Positions 319 through 6,126 of a DNA stretch of 6,663 bases are shown here, one piece after another; position 1 is the stretch's first letter; the number at the start of each line of letters is the position of its first letter. A program made the translations under genes and the position numbers. Origin of the DNA: a virus (Duplodnaviria; Heunggongvirae; Uroviricota; Caudoviricetes). Location: positions 1 through 6,663 of the IMG/VR virus record IMGVR_UViG_2648501669_000009, one strand, 5' to 3'. Under the pieces are notes generated by a model, which was not told the DNA's origin, did no database searches, and worked only from the letters and a program-made list of their open reading frames with translations.

Positions 319-630
319 TTACGCTTCAGCCTTATTTCTCAGCCATACACAAACAGGACCATCTTCAGTGTCATGAATGGAACCAATGAACCAGCCATCG
401 CCCTCTGGTCGTTCCGGTTCCCATGCTGAAATATCAGGGCCATCTGCGTCCAGGTTAAAATCATCTTCATCCATAGTGCAGATAGTCCACTGAAGATTAT
501 TTGCCTCCATCCACGCGTTAAATTCCTCTGTGGAAATATATTCACGACCTGCGCAAAACTTTTCATACTCAGGATGTGTCCAGCAGCCATATTCATCACG
601 TACTACTGGTATTTCTTTAATTTCATTCAT
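319..630 (-). CDS. Hypothetical acidic protein, 103 aa (phage accessory; family not recognised)
   Basis: ORF MNEIKEIPVVRDEY...VWLRNKAEA. Its ATG at 630 overlaps the upstream stop in an ATGAATGA arrangement, with GGGAGA about 6 nt upstream. Very acidic and Trp-rich. Confidence 0.7.
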   Translation of the reverse strand: MNEIKEIPVVRDEYGCWTHPEYEKFCAGREYISTEEFNAWMEANNLQWTICTMDEDDFNLDADGPDISAWEPERPEGDGWFIGSIHDTEDGPVCVWLRNKAEA

Positions 631-877: not shown

Positions 878-1341
878 TGGTTGTCTCCTTTGCGAATCTG
901 TTCCGCACAATGCAACAATGCTTCTGTCACTTCCTTAAGCGTTACAGTATCGGCATCATCCAGTTCTGCAACTTTTGCATGCCTGACAAACGCCGCGCGA
1001 AGCTCGTTAAACGCCACCGCCTGTATATCAGCCAGGAAAGCGTCAGTAGCTGGCGTTTCAGGCTTGAATCCATTTGCATCGCGTGGGCTGATGTCATCGC
1101 TTGTATAAATAAAGCAATCATCCTTAATGAATTTATTTAACCCCACATTCTCCACTGCCAGCGTCGCAAAATTAGCTTCCAGTTCTGCAATGCGTTTGCT
1201 TTGGGCTTCCCGTTCATCCAGCAGTTCCAACACAACCTGAGGTGTGACTTTCATGCGAAATGCCAGCAATTTTTGTGGTGTGGCTGCGATTTTTATTGCT
1301 TCTGCCACATCACGCAGTACCTGGTAATTAATGTTGCTCAC
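874..1341 (-). CDS. Coiled-coil protein, 155 aa, possibly Ead/Ea22-like
   Basis: The track ORF starts at ATG 1368 with no RBS. A GTG at 1341-1339 is preceded by AGGAGG (plus 1348-1353 cctcct) with a 6-nt spacer. The product (VSNINYQVLRDVAEAIK...ELEANFATLAVENVG...) has a predicted coiled-coil N-terminal half. The Ea22 resemblance is from memory only. Confidence 0.65.
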   Translation of the reverse strand: MSNINYQVLRDVAEAIKIAATPQKLLAFRMKVTPQVVLELLDEREAQSKRIAELEANFATLAVENVGLNKFIKDDCFIYTSDDISPRDANGFKPETPATDAFLADIQAVAFNELRAAFVRHAKVAELDDADTVTLKEVTEALLHCAEQIRKGDNQ

Positions 1342-1633
1342 TGGTTGCCTCCTGGAAAATAACTGCATGCCCCAGCTTCTCCGCCAGTGCCAGTTCCGCC
1401 TTAGCGCCTGCTGACCGCTGCCAGCCTTTCAGCATGTAAATCGCATCCACACAACGAATCATTGCCATGCAAATATCCATGTAGTGTGGCTGTGTCAGTC
1501 CGTCCGGAAGTACTGCCGGGTTTAAGACTGTATGCCCTTCCCGTTTCAGTTCCTCTTCCGCCTTGTGAAACGCCTCACGGTTGAAATTTTCATATCCCGT
1601 CATTGGACCGGCGATATAAACCCTCACCCTCAC
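1328..1633 (-). CDS. DUF4406-type protein (nucleoside 2-deoxyribosyltransferase-like fold), 101 aa
   Basis: The N-terminus MRVRVYIAGPMTGYENFN matches the YIAGPMTG signature I associate with the DUF4406 family. GTG start at 1633 with AGGAGG 8 nt upstream; it overlaps the upstream stop as GTGA. Confidence 0.8.
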   Translation of the reverse strand: MRVRVYIAGPMTGYENFNREAFHKAEEELKREGHTVLNPAVLPDGLTQPHYMDICMAMIRCVDAIYMLKGWQRSAGAKAELALAEKLGHAVIFQEATSEQH

Positions 1634-1947
1634 TCCTGTATCCTCCTGTCGAAATAAACATAGTTATTCACCGTGCGCAGCGGCATTTCGAGTTTTTCCG
1701 CTATCTCGCGACGAGAAATACCCTGCTCATGTAGCTTTCGTATCAGCTCAACACTGCTCCAGGGGATTTTTACCGACTGATGAAAATCACCTCGCAATAT
1801 CAGACTGATACCCAGTTCCCGCGCTTTTGTTCTTACTGCCACCTCCGTGCGACCAGTCAGTTTCCCGATATCTTTCACCCGCATGGTGCCAGCACACTGC
1901 CGGAGTATCAGAATTTCAGCCCTGCACCACTTCTTCCAGTTGCTCAC
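1630..1947 (-). CDS. Small DNA-binding protein with helix-turn-helix motifs, 105 aa (alternative start ATG 1884 gives 84 aa)
   Basis: The track ORF 1630-2034 overlaps the upstream gene by 80 nt. A GTG at 1947-1945 lies 5 nt after the upstream TAA and shares the GTGAGCAAC start context of the gene at 1341. HTH-like segments: GKLTGRTEVAVRTKARELGI and ISRREIAEKLEMPLRTVNNYV (NinH-like pattern). The start is not certain. Confidence 0.55.
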   Translation of the reverse strand: MSNWKKWCRAEILILRQCAGTMRVKDIGKLTGRTEVAVRTKARELGISLILRGDFHQSVKIPWSSVELIRKLHEQGISRREIAEKLEMPLRTVNNYVYFDRRIQE

Positions 1948-1952
1948 TGCTG

Positions 1953-2693
1953 TTACTCTCTGGTGGCAGTAATCTGTCGGAGAATATCCCGGTACTTGTT
2001 CAGCTCCCGCAGCGCGGCACAGACTCGCTCCCATTTCCGGATATCACTTTTCGCCCGACGCAGCTCGCGGTTTGCCTGTCGCAGCGATGGCAGAACCAGA
2101 TTATCCACTCGCTTCTCAAGCGGCTGCACAATGTCTGCCACAGTTTCTGTTTTAATATCTTCCTGTGTTGCAGCTTCCTGTACTGGTAACGCAACACATG
2201 CAGGCTGAGGAAAGGCTTTACCATCAGTTTCCGCTACCGATGCCGCTTTCGGCTCTGCTGGTAAATTACCGCCCGGCATGCAGTAGCGAAATTTACCGTT
2301 CTGGTTTACGCGTGCCAGCCGCCCCGTTGCGGTTACTACCGCCAGCGTGGAAGCAACCTTGCGAGTGCTGACACCGAACTTACCCGCCAGTTCCTCACAC
2401 GTTTTAGCTCCCTCCTGACCGATAAACTCAATCATCATGTCAGCGGTAACTTTTCGTTCGACCTCCCTGGTTAGCACATCCTGTACTTCAGATTGTGCTG
2501 GCTGCTCTTCGGCTACCCCTGATTCACCTTCGCCAGCCACACGCCAGGTGTATACGCTTTTATCAACGAAGCCAGCCTTTTTCAGTTCCCACAGCTCGTT
2601 CAGTACTTCTTCACGACTGATATCAAGTCGCGCAGCCAGCTCTACCGACGTGGCTTTTCCCATCGCTTTCAGTGCGTCAAAAACAGTCTCCAT
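1953..2693 (-). CDS. Tandem winged-helix-like protein with C-terminal coiled coil, 246 aa (phage early protein, function unknown)
   Basis: The track start (2744) overlaps the DnaC-like gene. The internal ATG at 2693-2691 has GGGAGG 8 nt upstream and sits 22 nt after the DnaC-like stop. Two similar segments ([30 protein letters not shown] and [34 protein letters not shown]) precede a basic, heptad-like C-terminus. Confidence 0.75.
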
Positions 2694-2715
2694 TAAAATT
2701 TCCTCCCGGTAAAAA

Positions 2716-3462
2716 TTACTTCTCAATACCTGGCTGACCAACATTCGGGCGCCAGCTCTCCCAGTTAAAATTCACCCATCGCCCGCCGTTCATGGTCATG
2801 CGATCCATAATCCGCTCGCCGAGCAATGTTTTCATGGCCTCATAGTTCAGGTTTGTCAGCATTCCCACGCTGCGCATCGACGCTGTCCGGCGATCAACAA
2901 TCTGGTGCAGTACCACCTGCTCGTTTTTCGTCTCGCGCTGAATGCCAATTTCATCAAGAACCAGCAGATCCACTTCGCACAGTTCCCGCAAAAATTTTTC
3001 GCCTGATTGCCCGTCGTCATAGCTGGCGTGTAGAGCACTCATAACATCAGCCACGGTAACCACAATCACTGTCTGGCCATCTTTCAGCAGGCGATTCCCG
3101 ATAGCCGCCGCTAAGTGGTTTTTCCCGGTACCAGGTTTTCCGCTGAATGCGAAATTTGTGCATCCGGTCATCAGTTCATCGGCGATGGATTTCACCTGGC
3201 TCAACGCGTATCGCTGGCCGTCATTCTGCACCTGGTAATTCGCAAACGAGCACTTGCGGTGCAACGGCTGGATGCCGGAGCGATTCAGAATTTTTTCCAC
3301 CCGCAACTGACGATTCTGGCGGTTGATCTCCTCGCAACGCTTCTGGCCTTCTGCAAGTTGCCACTCGCGCCACTCGTCCACTGTTCGGTATGGCGCGGTT
3401 ACATGCTGCGGAGCCAGCTTACGGATGCGTTCAAGAACACCGCCTGTCGCAATATTTTTCAT
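2716..3462 (-). CDS. DnaC-like AAA+ helicase loader (lambda P functional analogue; YdaV-type replication protein)
   Basis: Walker [16 protein letters not shown] and Walker B LLVLDEIG, 248 aa. The ATG at 3462 follows the O-like stop by 6 nt, with a GGGGG SD. Confidence 0.9.
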
Positions 3463-3468
3463 GCTTCG

Positions 3469-4416
3469 TTACCCCCTGAATCCCGGCGGAATTTCGGCGT
3501 CCGGCTCGGAAATATGATTCACGCAACGCTGTACAGGCGAACGCCCCAGACGAATAACCAGCTCATCCCATTTTTCGCGAAGCTTTGACGGGCTCATGAC
3601 GTTTTTTACCCAGAATGGATCCCGCTGTGCCCGACCAAACATTTCGCAAATTTGCCTGTGAGTTCTGCCATCAAGCATCCGCATTGTGCGCACGTCATTG
3701 GCCCATGCAGTCCAGTTGGGTTCTTTCGGTCGCATGATTTCGCCATCATCGCTGGCAGCCTGCTCGTAAAGACTCACGATTCGTCCCCAGATCCACTGCG
3801 CACACGCCAAATCTTCCTGGCTGCCCCACTGGCGTTTTTTCGCACTGAACACAACCGCGTCAGGGTGTCGGGTTAAAAAATCCTGTTCAGCCGTCTGCGG
3901 GTCCGGTTGCGAAGCGTCCGGACGAAAAGATCTTTTATCTGACGGATCAGGTTTTAATACTGACGGATCGGGGCCAACCATCGCCCCCCTAACCGGATGT
4001 TTTTTATCAACGGTTGATCCATCAAAATTTGAGGGGTCAACCGTTGAGGGGTCAATATTTGACGGGTCATTTTTTACCGGGTTAATTTTTCTTTTCGGTT
4101 TATATGCCTCACGCGCCGCCGCTGCTGCTGCTTCGAGTTTTTCCACATTAAGACGGTAGATATTGCTTTCATTACGCCCACCGACCTTACGTTCTTCCTT
4201 CGTCAGCCAGCCGTTCTTTTCCAGTTCTGCTATCGCAGCTTTAACCGTTGATTCACTCTTTGCCCCAATCTGACGACGAATGGTCTCCACTGCAGGCCAT
4301 GACACACCTTCGTCATTGCTGTAATCTGCAAGGCGAGCCATTACTGCCACCCTGGATAAGATCATGCCGGTGAAGGCGCACCCTTCCCAGACAAGACCAT
4401 GAAGCTTGCTGCTCAT
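3469..4416 (-). CDS. Phage replication initiation protein (lambda O-like: N-terminal winged-helix DNA-binding domain, repeat/poly-Ala linker, C-terminal domain)
   Basis: 315 aa. The N-terminal domain is HTH-like (VSWPAVETIRRQIGAKSESTVKAAIAELEKNGWL). The central region encodes EAAAAAARE and DPS repeats (DPSNIDPSTVDPSNFDGSTVD) that coincide with DNA iterons. It sits immediately upstream of the DnaC-like gene. GGAG SD 7 nt before ATG 4416. Confidence 0.85.
   Translation of the reverse strand: MSSKLHGLVWEGCAFTGMILSRVAVMARLADYSNDEGVSWPAVETIRRQIGAKSESTVKAAIAELEKNGWLTKEERKVGGRNESNIYRLNVEKLEAAAAAAREAYKPKRKINPVKNDPSNIDPSTVDPSNFDGSTVDKKHPVRGAMVGPDPSVLKPDPSDKRSFRPDASQPDPQTAEQDFLTRHPDAVVFSAKKRQWGSQEDLACAQWIWGRIVSLYEQAASDDGEIMRPKEPNWTAWANDVRTMRMLDGRTHRQICEMFGRAQRDPFWVKNVMSPSKLREKWDELVIRLGRSPVQRCVNHISEPDAEIPPGFRG
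3940..4074. repeat. Iteron-like direct repeats (core TGA[C/G]GG[A/G]TCA, at least 5 copies) inside the O-like gene, followed by an AT-rich tract: putative prophage replication origin
   Basis: Copies at 3940-3949 tgacggatca, 3961-3970 tgacggatcg, 4030-4039 tgaggggtca, 4045-4054 tgaggggtca and 4060-4069 tgacgggtca, the last three as tandem 15-bp units. Inverted repeats tcaacggttga (4008-4018) and tcaaccgttga (4037-4047). AT-rich tract about 4069-4105. Confidence 0.6.
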
Positions 4417-4440: not shown

Positions 4441-4866
4441 TTAGTGCATCACCAAGGCATTTCCCGCCGGACCACCACGATTCATCTGATTGAAACCAGC
4501 GATCGCCACTGCGACAAAATCATCAGCGTCTCTCACCAGTCGTTCCCGCGTCTCCACCAGCTCCCGAAACCAGGCTGAACTGTGGCTGCGCATTCGGGCC
4601 ACCAGCAGAGGAGGCATTGCTTTTTCGATCGCTGGTAACAACGCCTGAATTTTTTTAACCGCATCAGGGGTGTCTTTCTCCACCCAGCGGAAAATTTTCT
4701 GAGTATTGCGAGCCAGGGCTTCCGGATGGCTGTCGTCATATAATTCCGGGAACGTCATACCCAGCTCAAAATAAGCCCGGGTTATTTCAGCTGCCGGAAC
4801 TTTTTCACCGTCCGGATGCGCCCAGGCATTCATCGCCATGCGGATGTGTTCATGCTTGATTTTCAT
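4441..4866 (-). CDS. ydaT: YdaT-family protein (CII-like regulator of Rac/CP-933P-type prophages), 141 aa
   Basis: N-terminus MKIKHEHI. Its ATG overlaps the ydaS-like stop as ATGA (4866-4863). Second gene of the rightward-early-type operon, directly before the O-like gene. Confidence 0.8.
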   Translation of the reverse strand: MKIKHEHIRMAMNAWAHPDGEKVPAAEITRAYFELGMTFPELYDDSHPEALARNTQKIFRWVEKDTPDAVKKIQALLPAIEKAMPPLLVARMRSHSSAWFRELVETRERLVRDADDFVAVAIAGFNQMNRGGPAGNALVMH

Positions 4867-5165
4867 GAATCAACTCCATCAGATAAGCATGCACTACAAT
4901 CACCTTCAGCATGAACTACATGTGTTTGCCCCAAACGAATGCCGCTCGCATACTCAGGCCAAATAAGCTCCCAATCATGGGGTCGTAGCTCCGCCCTACT
5001 TACTTGGCCTTCCGTCGCAGATTCGATCATAAGGGCGCGGGTTGGAGATATAGCTGCTCGTCCAGACGCCATTTGCGATAAGTAAGATGGCGATACACCA
5101 AGTCTGGCCGCGAATTTCTTAGCATCACCAACCCTCAATGATTTAATAAACTCTTTTAATGTCAT
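4863..5165 (-). CDS. ydaS: YdaS-family Cro-like HTH regulator, 100 aa
   Basis: HTH DAKKFAARLGVSPSYLSQMASGRAAISPTRALMIESAT. First gene transcribed divergently from the repressor gene. GAGGAAGG SD before ATG 5165. Confidence 0.8.
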   Translation of the reverse strand: MTLKEFIKSLRVGDAKKFAARLGVSPSYLSQMASGRAAISPTRALMIESATEGQVSRAELRPHDWELIWPEYASGIRLGQTHVVHAEGDCSACLSDGVDS

Positions 5166-5175
5166 ACCTTCCTCG

Positions 5176-5251
5176 GTTTAGTGTTTTTTTGTGAGTTTAG
5201 TGTTTAATAAACCATTAAGTCAAGTATTTGCTTGTTTAGTGATTACTAAAG
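5176..5251. promoter_or_regulatory. OR-like operator cluster: three 18-bp sites each starting GTTTAGTG
   Basis: Sites at 5176-5193 gtttagtgtttttttgtg, 5195-5212 gtttagtgtttaataaac (GTTTA-N8-TAAAC dyad) and 5234-5251 gtttagtgattactaaag, all in the 97-bp interval between the divergent ydaS-like and repressor genes. Confidence 0.5.
5194..5223 (-). promoter_or_regulatory. PR-like sigma70 promoter for the ydaS-ydaT-O-DnaC operon
   Basis: Minus-strand -35 TTGACT (plus 5218-5223), 18-nt spacer, -10 TAAACT (plus 5194-5199). The operator at 5195-5212 covers the spacer and -10. Confidence 0.4.
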
Positions 5252-5256
5252 ATAAT
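5228..5256 (+). promoter_or_regulatory. PRM-like promoter for the repressor operon; predicted leaderless mRNA
   Basis: -35 TTGCTT (5228-5233), 17-nt spacer, -10 GATAAT (5251-5256). The ATG at 5263 lies 6 nt after the -10 with no SD, so the transcript would start at or next to the start codon. Confidence 0.45.
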
Positions 5257-5262
5257 TACCGC

Positions 5263-5634
5263 ATGCAAAAAAAAGAAATTCGCCGTTTACGTCTCAAGGA
5301 GTGGTTTAAAGATAAAACTCTGCCACCCAAAGAGAAGAGCTACCTATCTCAACTAATGAGTGGGAGGGCCTCGTTTGGAGAAAAGGCTGCCAGAAGAATA
5401 GAGCAAACATACGGGATGCCGGAAGGGTATCTGGATGCGGAATACGCAGAACAACCGGAAGTTTCTCCACCACATGCAGGGTTAACGTCTAATCAACTGG
5501 AATTATTGCAGATTTTTTCAGCCTTCCCTGAGGATGAGCAACGCCAGATAATCAGCGAGTTAAAGCAGAAAAAAGAATCAATGGAAGATCTCATAGCGAG
5601 ATGGATTGCGGCGCAAAAATGCCGCCGCGCCTGA
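5263..5634 (+). CDS. paaR2: XRE-family HTH repressor (CI-like prophage repressor; PaaR2-type regulator of a three-gene TA operon), 123 aa
   Basis: The track ORF begins at GTG 5191, only 25 nt from the divergent gene. The ATG at 5263 leaves room for both promoters. HTH KSYLSQLMSGRASFGEKAARRIEQTYGMPEGYLD. Divergent from the Cro-like gene and followed by an antitoxin-toxin pair. Confidence 0.7.
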   Translation: MQKKEIRRLRLKEWFKDKTLPPKEKSYLSQLMSGRASFGEKAARRIEQTYGMPEGYLDAEYAEQPEVSPPHAGLTSNQLELLQIFSAFPEDEQRQIISELKQKKESMEDLIARWIAAQKCRRA

Positions 5635-5654
5635 GTTATAAAACCGGAGGAAAC

Positions 5655-5846
5655 ATGAATAGAGCCCTTTCACCAATGGTTTCTGAATTTGAAACCATTG
5701 AACAAGAAAACAGTTACAACGAATGGCTGCGTGCGAAAGTAGCAACGAGCCTTGCAGATCCGCGCCCAGCAATTCCCCATGACGAAGTTGAGCGCAGAAT
5801 GGCAGAACGCTTTGCTAAAATGCGCAAGGAACGGAGCAAGCAGTAA
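5655..5846 (+). CDS. paaA2: PaaA2-type antitoxin, 63 aa
   Basis: The track ORF starts at ATG 5601 inside the repressor gene. The ATG at 5655 is preceded by GGAGGA (5645-5650). The 63-aa product (MNRALSPMVSEFETIEQENSYNEWLRAKVATSLADPRPAIPHDEVERRMAERFAKMRKERSKQ) matches the length and character I recall for PaaA2. Confidence 0.8.
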   Translation: MNRALSPMVSEFETIEQENSYNEWLRAKVATSLADPRPAIPHDEVERRMAERFAKMRKERSKQ

Positions 5847-5847
5847 A

Positions 5848-6126
5848 ATGTTACCCGTGTTATGGCTTGAAAGCGCAGATACCGACCTAGATGATATAGC
5901 TAGCTATATTGCTCGTTTCGACATAGATGCGGCTGAACGCTTATGGCAGCGATTAAGGGGTTGTGTGCTGCCGTTATCCGAACATCCGTATTTATACCCA
6001 CCAAGCGACAGAGTACCTGGCTTGCGTGAGATTGTAGCCCACCCTAACTATATAATTCTATACCGCGTAACAACATCAAGCGTTGAAGTAGTAAACGTGA
6101 TCCACGCAAGACGCCAGTTTCCCTAA
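5848..6126 (+). CDS. parE2: ParE-family toxin (ParE2-type), 92 aa
   Basis: ATG 5848 lies 1 nt after the antitoxin TAA (TAAaATG). The product MLPVLWLESADTDLDDIASYIARFDIDAAERLWQRL...ILYRVTTSSVEVVNVIHARRQFP has a ParE/RelE-like layout. The longer track ORF from 5752 is an in-frame upstream extension overlapping the antitoxin. Confidence 0.85.
   Translation: MLPVLWLESADTDLDDIASYIARFDIDAAERLWQRLRGCVLPLSEHPYLYPPSDRVPGLREIVAHPNYIILYRVTTSSVEVVNVIHARRQFP

Follow-up and report, generated by a model that had tools for sequence, protein, structure and literature searches.

A DUF1627/YdaW-family gene and a tandem-HTH gene in the ren slot of a Rac-type Escherichia coli prophage

Two genes directly 3′ of a helicase loader

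The window, by which we mean the whole 6,663-nucleotide stretch of DNA analyzed here, comes from an E. coli prophage of the CP-933P/Rac-type lambdoid kind, and some part of it is matched in 4817 of 5426 complete E. coli genomes. In its early-right operon, two minus-strand genes lie directly 3′ of a gene for a DnaC-type helicase loader: ORF1, encoding 246 aa (1953..2693, including the TAA stop), and ORF2, encoding 105 aa (1630..1947, including the TGA stop). A sequence-only reading of this DNA had placed two such genes behind a helicase loader, and the upstream gene (2716..3462, minus strand) indeed matches NF009043 (E 3.4e-153) and phrog_50 (E 1.2e-85). The loader gene and ORF1 are separated by 22 nt, ORF1 and ORF2 by 5 nt (CAGCA), and the ORF2 stop overlaps, as GTGA, the GTG start of a minus-strand DUF4406 gene (1328..1633; nucleoside 2-deoxyribosyltransferase-like; Pfam PF14359, E 1.4e-37; phrog_355, E 1.6e-48). 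A promoter/terminator scan returned sites no more numerous than expected by chance and none, terminator-like sites included, between 1300 and 3500, and Rfam matched no RNA family in the window. ORF1 and ORF2 are probably translationally coupled. We propose that they are co-transcribed from the early-right promoter with the cro-like, YdaT, O-like and DnaC-like genes, and that they stand at the head of the equivalent of the ren/nin region.

Both genes are real protein-coding genes. The ORF1 reading frame runs from ATG at 2693 to TAA at 1955-1953, on the minus strand and at the place where a 246-aa protein had been read from the letters, and direct reading shows a Shine-Dalgarno sequence, GGGAGGA (2700..2706, minus strand), 7-8 nt 5′ of the start. 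All full-length homologues begin with METV..., and the 246-aa form is therefore correct; a 263-aa version from ATG 2744 was rejected because it overlaps the DnaC-like gene and its extension is not conserved. ORF1 is 100% identical to a catalogued E. coli protein (P0001) present on 72 contigs.

ORF2 begins with GTG at 1947, exactly 5 nt after the ORF1 stop as the sequence-only reading had it, and ends with TGA at 1632-1630. Its start is GTG, its Shine-Dalgarno-like motif is weak, and some public records hold 84-aa or 93-aa forms (P0126, P0131, P0158, P0215), but we consider it very improbable that ORF2 is no real gene or that only an 84-aa form from ATG 1884 is made. Of 39 distinct homologous DNA sequences, 33 keep the GTG, preceded at a distance of 8-12 nt by a GGAGA/GAGAG motif, and in many homologues the TGA stop of ORF1 overlaps it as GTGA. 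Comparison of homologues with the window gives a dN/dS of about 0.1-0.25 across the whole ORF, indicating purifying selection, and in codons 2-21 pS greatly exceeds pN. Moreover, a conserved N-terminal segment, W..W.RAEI.ILRQCAG, lies 5′ of ATG 1884; its W..W.RAEI motif, which forms helix 1 of the first HTH domain, is conserved out to Vibrio phages, and in the AlphaFold2 (AF2) model this domain is complete only with residues 9-18. Where the locus is identical, public annotations also have the gene at 105 aa. A 134-aa version from ATG 2034 was rejected, as homologues never extend there and the extension overlaps the upstream gene.

Families and domain architecture

ORF1 belongs to the DUF1627/YdaW family. 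It matches Pfam PF07789 (DUF1627) with an E of 3.5e-87 and 290.4 bits, against a gathering cut-off of 28.1, the whole model (1-155 of 155) aligning to residues 91-241, and it matches phrog_630 over residues 1-245 (E 3.8e-122); the DUF1627/YdaW protein search gave 2452 matches. The AF2 model bears out the earlier description of a tandem pair of winged-helix-like segments with a coiled-coil tail. Winged helix 1 (WH1; aa 1-52, 2538..2693, pLDDT 94-97) has an H-H-H-E-E topology, winged helix 2 (WH2; aa 81-140, 2274..2453, pLDDT 94-96) follows, and the C-terminal DUF1627 ‘tail’ (aa 201-246, 1956..2093, pLDDT 83-95) contains helices at 204-233 and 235-245, all on the minus strand. The two winged helices and the long helix spanning 204-245 are modeled with pLDDT >90, and the linkers are disordered and acidic. 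The Pfam alignment covers WH2, the linker and the tail.

In an alignment of 40 representatives (22-78% identity), WH1 is the best-conserved block of the family, with a motif of 15 letters near the N-terminus and W50 at its end, and the tail keeps P202, R212 and an EIRRTK-like motif. ORF1 carries both the N-terminal winged helix with this motif and the conserved tail motif, as full-length members do. The tail also occurs with one or both winged helices missing (P0281, P0340, phrog_1888). Two further proteins, which join the N-terminus of a replication protein to a DUF1627 tail (P0272, P0242), look like deletion fusions in decayed prophages, and we set them aside as functional evidence.

Charge differs between the parts of ORF1: WH1 carries a net -1, WH2 +4 and the tail +7. 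Across the 40 homologues the median for WH1 is -2, and its recognition helix is acidic. Because this acidity holds across the family, the sequences make DNA binding by WH1 unlikely. Foldseek searches of the PDB with the ORF1 model returned generic winged-helix proteins only, with no match at E <1e-3, and profile searches gave weak MarR/ArsR-type matches. WH2 also drew a weak profile match to ADAR1/ZBP1 (E 7e-6 to 1e-3), with Foldseek likeness at the generic winged-helix level. The hallmarks of a Z-alpha domain, in ADAR1 numbering, are two recognition-helix residues, Asn173 and Tyr177, and one wing residue, Trp195; in the alignment, the Asn and Tyr positions are Ser115 and Val119 of ORF1, and a Z-alpha assignment was rejected.

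The small gene had been read as encoding an HTH protein. The HTH fold stands, although the AF2 model has two such domains, not one, both with pLDDT >90: a strongly basic domain 1 (aa 9-45, 1813..1923; helices 9-18, 24-31 and 35-45) and domain 2 (aa 63-104, 1636..1761; helices 63-74, 79-85 and 90-104), on the minus strand. Residues 1-52 have a net charge of +8, with a family median of +7, and the whole protein has a net charge of +9 and a pI of 10.2. ORF2 is a member of PHROG 323 (‘transcriptional regulator, D5-like’): residues 4-104, spanning both HTH repeats, align to positions 146-248 of the 319-position phrog_323 profile (E 2e-23), and the same profile is matched by relatives from D6, Vibrio, Serratia and Mu-like phages. 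With phage D6 orf90 (63% identity over 103 residues) and a 183-aa Mu-like prophage protein of this PHROG, ORF2 shares the repeat pattern W-x3-E...GRT..AV / G.S..EIAEKL. PHROG 323 members differ in having two or three HTH repeats and in their contexts, which are P1-like, the Mu-like early region, P2-like beside gene A, and lytic phages. The 136 ORF2 homologues are named ‘DNA-binding protein’ by their sources.

Foldseek placed ORF2 among tandem-HTH DNA binders (2LVS, DUX4, Pax, Tc3), with no PDB match at E <1e-3. The best PDB match, both by profile (E 2.6e-5) and by fold, is 2LVS, the CRISPR-repeat-binding protein Cbp2. Like ORF2, Cbp2, the paired domain, DUX4 and Tc3 transposase are built from two three-helix HTHs joined by a short basic linker within ~105 residues. 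The match is nevertheless weak (Foldseek E 0.027, TM 0.35; 22% identity), and Cbp2 is archaeal and shares no context with ORF2; the likeness is one of design, not of family. BFVD yielded only uncharacterized phage proteins and the DNA-binding domains of HNH endonucleases and transposases. The second HTH gave marginal Pfam matches to Sigma70_r4_2 (29.3 bits, cut-off 25.7) and HTH_23, confined to residues 71-98. A sigma-70/ECF sigma factor was rejected, as only residues 74-98 match Sigma70_r4_2 and region 2 is absent; TIGR02937 scored 16.1 bits against a cut-off of 42.9.

For ORF1 and ORF2 together, PDB sequence and profile searches found only generic HTH/winged-helix matches or designed repeat proteins, and no NCBIfam family was matched above cut-off. 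The sequence-only reading had called both products DNA-binding and uncharacterized. Both do have DNA-binding-type folds, with no clear homology to a non-DNA-binding family, although calling ORF1 simply DNA-binding is an assumption. Neither has a characterized relative in Pfam, NCBIfam, PHROGs, PADLOC, the PDB or BFVD, but they are not new: the two genes are correctly described as members of already catalogued families, and they constitute no new kind of system.

YdaW, Ren and the slot behind the loader

YdaW of the E. coli K-12 Rac prophage (DUF1627, PHROG 630) is of the same family as ORF1, with a full-length match of 290 bits; YdaW-family genes occupy the same position after a DnaC-like, YdaV-type loader, and the WH1-WH2-tail architecture of ORF1 is that of full-length YdaW homologues. 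K-12 ydaW itself is a truncated remnant whose match is confined to residues 1-154 (67% identity), beyond which it is fused to rzpR (loci L086 and L087), whereas the copy in the window is intact. Our literature search found no functional study of YdaW/DUF1627, which is mentioned only in lists of uncharacterized transcription factors, in a single screen for retron blockers and, close to Pas sRNAs, as a marker gene. Genes of this family are common in E. coli prophages, so assigning them a function would annotate a very common gene.

In a survey of gene neighborhoods, 146 of 149 loci had a DUF1627 gene directly 3′ of the gene for the helicase loader, at a gap of 25-46 nt. The loader was DnaC-type in 72 loci and of the unrelated lambda-P type in 74. 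Of 77 loci scored for the slot after DUF1627, 57 had a Ren-like gene there, 17 an ORF2-type gene and 3 something else, and Ren-like and ORF2-type genes occurred together at one locus only. ORF2-type and Ren-like genes thus alternate in the position behind DUF1627. An ORF2-type neighbor is lacking at most DUF1627 genes, and ORF2 is missing from all 12 loci found by scanning a species-representative genome collection with a 14-sequence subset of the DUF1627 alignment. Conversely, P1-like, Mu-like, P2-like and Vibrio phages carry ORF2 relatives that are not accompanied by DUF1627. The idea of the two genes as a linked pair therefore does not hold as an obligate unit, each gene occurring without the other. 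Conservation of the winged-helix and tandem-HTH pairing in distant phages was likewise rejected, as the winged-helix gene upstream of the ORF2 homologue in Vibrio phage 1.123.O is unrelated to DUF1627 (hhalign probability 0.5%). The fixed order of a loader of either type, DUF1627, and then a Ren-like or tandem-HTH gene offers a starting point for functional work.

The same position in lambda is occupied by ren, directly 3′ of P in the pR operon (PMC3640518), and Ren-like genes in general are the first or second gene 3′ of the helicase loader in that operon; lambda has no DUF1627 gene. The analogy to the lambda ren/nin region drawn from gene order alone proved closer than expected: a Ren-like gene is the usual occupant of the ORF2 slot, and WH2 aligns with the Ren family (hhalign probability 91.5%, ORF1 residues 85-141; phrog_142, E 1.9e-5, residues 79-137 only). 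BLASTP of ORF1 against lambda Ren gave no significant match (E 0.5). Ren proteins (PHROG 142) are 96-146 aa long, with one winged helix and a C-terminal ECR...G..R motif, whereas ORF1 has an extra winged helix and the DUF1627 tail. Full membership of ORF1 in the Ren family was rejected because the conserved ECR...G..R motif has no counterpart in it. The fold of ORF2 is unrelated to that of Ren, and ORF2 does not match PHROG 142 at all.

Possible functions of ORF1 and ORF2

There are several functional possibilities. The best explanation overall, which we advance tentatively, is that ORF1 and ORF2 are non-essential early genes in the ren slot, and more likely host-acting than core replication or late-gene factors. 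They would be dispensable accessory factors of early lytic development, and their host target could lie in Ren-type escape from exclusion or from toxin-based defense. Their accessory nature is suggested by the occurrence of DUF1627 behind two unrelated loader types, by its absence from lambda, and by the lack of ORF2 in the species-representative loci. An action on the host is suggested by a screen in which over-expressed K-12 ydaW was one of several prophage genes able to block RcaT, the toxin of retron-Sen2; this result comes from a preprint (10.1101/2020.06.22.160242) and concerns the truncated allele, 67% identical to ORF1 over residues 1-154. Ren is reportedly involved in escape from Rex exclusion, a role said to go back to Toothman and Herskowitz in 1980. 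By contrast, the WH2-Ren likeness spans only a generic winged helix of ~57 residues, and the alternation of ORF2-type and Ren-like genes may come from mosaic recombination at the borders of genes and not from shared function. In 74% of loci a DUF1627 gene is accompanied by a Ren-like gene, so the two are not redundant. If ORF1 and ORF2 are counter-defense or exclusion-escape factors, they would help to make sense of the ren slot of lambdoid phages, which is poorly understood.

At the molecular level, ORF2 probably binds DNA, and we infer that, acting as a monomer, it would use its two HTH domains to engage a composite site. Against this, no candidate DNA target sites turned up in the window. 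ORF1 probably binds both nucleic acid and a protein partner, possibly for escape from exclusion. In such a scheme, WH2 and the basic C-terminal helix would contact nucleic acid, the acidic WH1 may engage the partner, and the C-terminal helix, which is amphipathic, may also serve self-association.

Alternatively, ORF2 and perhaps ORF1 could be sequence-specific regulators of downstream nin-region, late or host genes, a role that has been shown for the neighboring YdaT, although for ORF1 and ORF2 we regard it as unlikely. The basic tandem-HTH architecture of ORF2, the ‘transcriptional regulator’ label of PHROG 323, the marginal Sigma70_r4_2 and HTH_23 matches and the MarR/ArsR-type matches of ORF1 are all consistent with regulation. 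However, the PHROG label is a prediction and not an experimental result (the NCBI name is only ‘DNA-binding protein’), tandem-HTH modules of this kind are likewise found as the DNA-binding part of HNH endonucleases and transposases, and the WH1 recognition helix is acidic. In addition, promoter-like sites near the genes do not exceed chance, and a repeat search found no operator-like repeats near ORF1 or ORF2. The prophages in question have a Q-type antiterminator downstream, which already covers late-gene control. For this reason, of the three roles that the sequence-only reading had left side by side (replication accessory factors, late-gene regulators and exclusion factors), late-gene regulation is the least likely.

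ORF1, with or without ORF2, might instead be a replication accessory that aids or modulates origin firing, helicase loading or replisome assembly for the prophage replication module, which we judge distinctly unlikely. The place of DUF1627 directly behind the loader gene, tightly spaced within one operon, favors such a role, as do the common use of tandem winged-helix proteins in replication and chromosome biology (one Foldseek match is ScpB) and the location of more distant ORF2 relatives beside a P2 gene-A-type replication gene and near a DnaD-like loader in Vibrio phages. Nevertheless, the roughly equal use of DnaC-type and unrelated lambda-P-type loaders argues against a specific loader partner, lambda replicates without DUF1627, and a Ren-like gene replaces ORF2 in most loci. 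Furthermore, PDB sequence and fold searches revealed no likeness to RepA/RepE-type initiators or to DnaD/DnaT.

Returning to host-acting accessory genes, a more specific and decidedly doubtful version would have DUF1627/YdaW and the gene behind it form a variable counter-defense cassette. Lambdoid phages would express this cassette along with their replication genes, and it would neutralize abortive-infection or toxin-based exclusion systems triggered by phage replication, RexAB and RcaT being examples, with ORF2-type and Ren-like genes supplying alternative specificities. In PADLOC, neither ORF1 nor ORF2 had a full-length match to a defense-system protein; the matches obtained were weak ones to HTH segments of Csa3/CARF models (E 5e-6 to 1e-2), and they cover the winged-helix stretches.

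Two protein-coding genes at the head of the replication-to-Q region

The window comes from a CP-933P/Rac-type lambdoid prophage of E. coli, in which ORF1 and ORF2 are real genes at the lengths proposed in the sequence-only reading (246 and about 105 aa), as judged from start and Shine-Dalgarno signals, conservation of the ORF2 GTG and N-terminus, and dN/dS. ORF1 runs on the minus strand from ATG 2693 to TAA 1955-1953 (246 aa) and has a GGGAGGA Shine-Dalgarno sequence, read from the sequence, upstream of its ATG. ORF2 (minus strand, GTG 1947 to 1630, 105 aa) starts 5 nt past the ORF1 stop; in many relatives the two genes overlap there as GTGA. Of 39 distinct DNA sequences from homologues, 33 keep this GTG, which has a GGAGA-like motif upstream. 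Homologues also conserve the first 21 residues, which make up helix 1 of HTH domain 1 in the AlphaFold2 (AF2) model; dN/dS relative to the window is 0.1-0.25 across the whole gene, and non-synonymous change in codons 2-21 is far below synonymous change. Public annotations of ORF2 relatives vary (84, 93 and 101-105 aa), and the conserved start and codon-level conservation support the 105-aa form, the 84- and 93-aa versions probably being too short.

Upstream on the same strand lie a YdaS/Cro-like gene (5165-4863), YdaT (4866-4441), an O-like initiator with an HTH_36 domain (4416-3469) and a DnaC-type helicase loader (3462-2716); downstream are a DUF4406 gene (nucleoside 2-deoxyribosyltransferase-like, 1633-1328) and an Ead/Ea22-like gene, and a PaaA2/ParE toxin-antitoxin pair and DUF1391 occupy the plus strand. 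Public contigs with an identical ORF1 give a wider order of integrase, exonuclease, DicB, immunity region, replication genes, DUF1627 (the ORF1 family), the 105-aa gene, DUF4406, more genes, RusA, Q antiterminator and lysis genes. By this map, ORF1 and ORF2 open the interval that runs from the replication genes to Q, which in lambda is occupied by ren and the nin genes; gene order in both window and contigs agrees with the lambda-like placement first read from the sequence.

Architecture and relatives of the two proteins

ORF1 belongs, as a full-length protein, to Pfam DUF1627 (E 3.5e-87) and to PHROG 630 (E 3.8e-122), whereas K-12 ydaW is a truncated copy; relatives in phage records are named ‘YdaW family’, and E. 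coli proteins 100% identical to ORF1 occur on dozens of contigs. An exhaustive search of cluster representatives with ORF1 recovered 176 clusters, every one DUF1627-family. Two proteins from this search, P0272 and P0242, are chimeras joining a replication-initiator-type N-terminus (DUF1376 in P0272) to part of DUF1627, and probably arose when deletions fused genes in decayed prophages.

The AF2 model of ORF1, which drew on 40 diverse homologues, is confident in three regions with disordered acidic linkers between them: winged helices at residues 1-52 (WH1) and 81-140 (WH2), which bear out the two tandem winged-helix-like segments originally described, and a long C-terminal helix (204-245). The coiled coil proposed for this tail is less firmly placed, as an a/d-like hydrophobic pattern of about four heptads, read by eye, is compatible with one but does not prove it. 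WH1 is acidic throughout the family, whereas net charge is positive in WH2 (+4) and in the tail (+7); any nucleic-acid contact is most likely made through WH2 and the tail, and WH1 more closely resembles a domain for protein contacts. In the PDB, searches by fold and by sequence returned only generic winged-helix proteins (ESCRT-II, ScpB, SelB, Z-alpha, MarR/ArsR). In profile comparison the Ren-family winged helix aligns with WH2 at 91.5% probability, but ORF1 lacks the conserved C-terminal motif of that family and does not belong to it.

ORF2, described beforehand as an HTH protein, does have that fold and belongs to PHROG 323 (E 2e-23), and its AF2 model contains two three-helix HTH domains in a basic protein (pI 10.2). 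The nearest solved structure is Cbp2 (2LVS), a double-HTH CRISPR-repeat-binding protein, and then come DUX4, paired domains and the Tc3 transposase DNA-binding domain, every one of these matches being weak. The predicted viral structures that ORF2 resembles include many uncharacterised ~100-aa phage proteins and DNA-binding modules from HNH endonucleases. Its 136 close relatives, from Escherichia, Salmonella, Citrobacter, Enterobacter and Pluralibacter, carry the sole name ‘DNA-binding protein’. More remote relatives are present in phage D6 (P1-like), in a P2-like Vibrio phage beside the gene-A homologue, in lytic phages and in a Mu-like prophage, where the protein has three repeats and its gene precedes gemA and mor.

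Gene order and candidate functions

In the loci surveyed, the pairing of the two genes holds in one direction only. DUF1627 lies directly upstream of ORF2 in 80 of 80 IMG/VR loci retrieved with ORF2, which are close E. coli-type relatives and hence non-independent samples, but DUF1627 mostly occurs without ORF2: among 77 usable loci retrieved with DUF1627, the next gene is Ren-like (PHROG 142) in 57, ORF2-type in 17 and something else in 3, with all three genes in series at a single locus. No ORF2 relative was found in 12 species-representative genomes carrying DUF1627. Directly ahead of DUF1627 is a DnaC-type loader in 72 of 149 loci and an unrelated lambda-P-type loader in 74. Nor is the order of the Ren-like and DUF1627 genes fixed, since loci L088 and L089 (from Citrobacter braakii and a soil metagenome-assembled genome) carry a 109-aa Ren-like gene not behind DUF1627 but between it and the DnaC-type loader (4662-4991 and 4663-4992). 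Separately, the DUF4406 gene overlaps the ORF2 stop as GTGA. A DUF4406 gene comes next after ORF2 in about two-thirds of the related loci, and in phage D6 (L002 3390-4315) one lies immediately before the ORF2 homologue; the adjacency may be functional or may come from a mosaic block held in common.

The analysis establishes what each gene is, how its product is built, that it is coding and part of the operon, and where it lies; function is a proposal only. We favor a reading in which ORF1 and ORF2 would be non-essential early proteins with accessory roles, encoded in the ren slot, because the surrounding gene set is mosaic, DUF1627 is indifferent to loader type and absent from lambda, a Ren-like gene can take the place of ORF2, and the literature's only functional hint is a screen in which over-expression of K-12 ydaW blocked the retron-Sen2 toxin (preprint 10.1101/2020.06.22.160242). 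The main rival is an accessory role in replication, for which the fixed position of DUF1627 behind the loader argues. From its fold, ORF2 could plausibly be a transcription regulator. Late-gene regulation, among the options raised initially, is unlikely, as public contigs show a Q antiterminator further downstream.

Both families are already catalogued, with identical or near-identical sequences in databases, and ours is a correct, ordinary account of the two genes. What it adds is modest: YdaW has an acidic, basic, basic charge layout and a Ren-like second winged helix, Ren-like and tandem-HTH genes alternate in the slot that follows it, and the ORF2 start is corrected to give 105 aa.

Other features of the window

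At the immunity region, a paaR2-paaA2-parE2-like module (5191-6126, plus strand) comprises a 147-aa ORF with no Pfam match (5191-5634), a PaaA2 antitoxin (5601-5846, Pfam E 1.7e-19) and a ParE toxin (5752-6126, E 1.7e-16), in agreement with the toxin-antitoxin system reported from prophage CP-933P (PMC8630535); the ORF-finder starts overlap and are probably too far upstream. Within the O-like gene, a near-perfect 20-nt palindrome (4007-4047; arms 90% complementary, 1 nt apart) falls in the stretch coding for a repeated DPSNIDPSTVDPSNFDGSTVD peptide and probably serves as the prophage's origin of replication, much as ori-lambda does from within gene O. A 103-aa ORF (319-630, minus strand) matches no Pfam or PADLOC family; many related prophage loci carry it at 81-94% identity, and phage D6 has a version at 82%.
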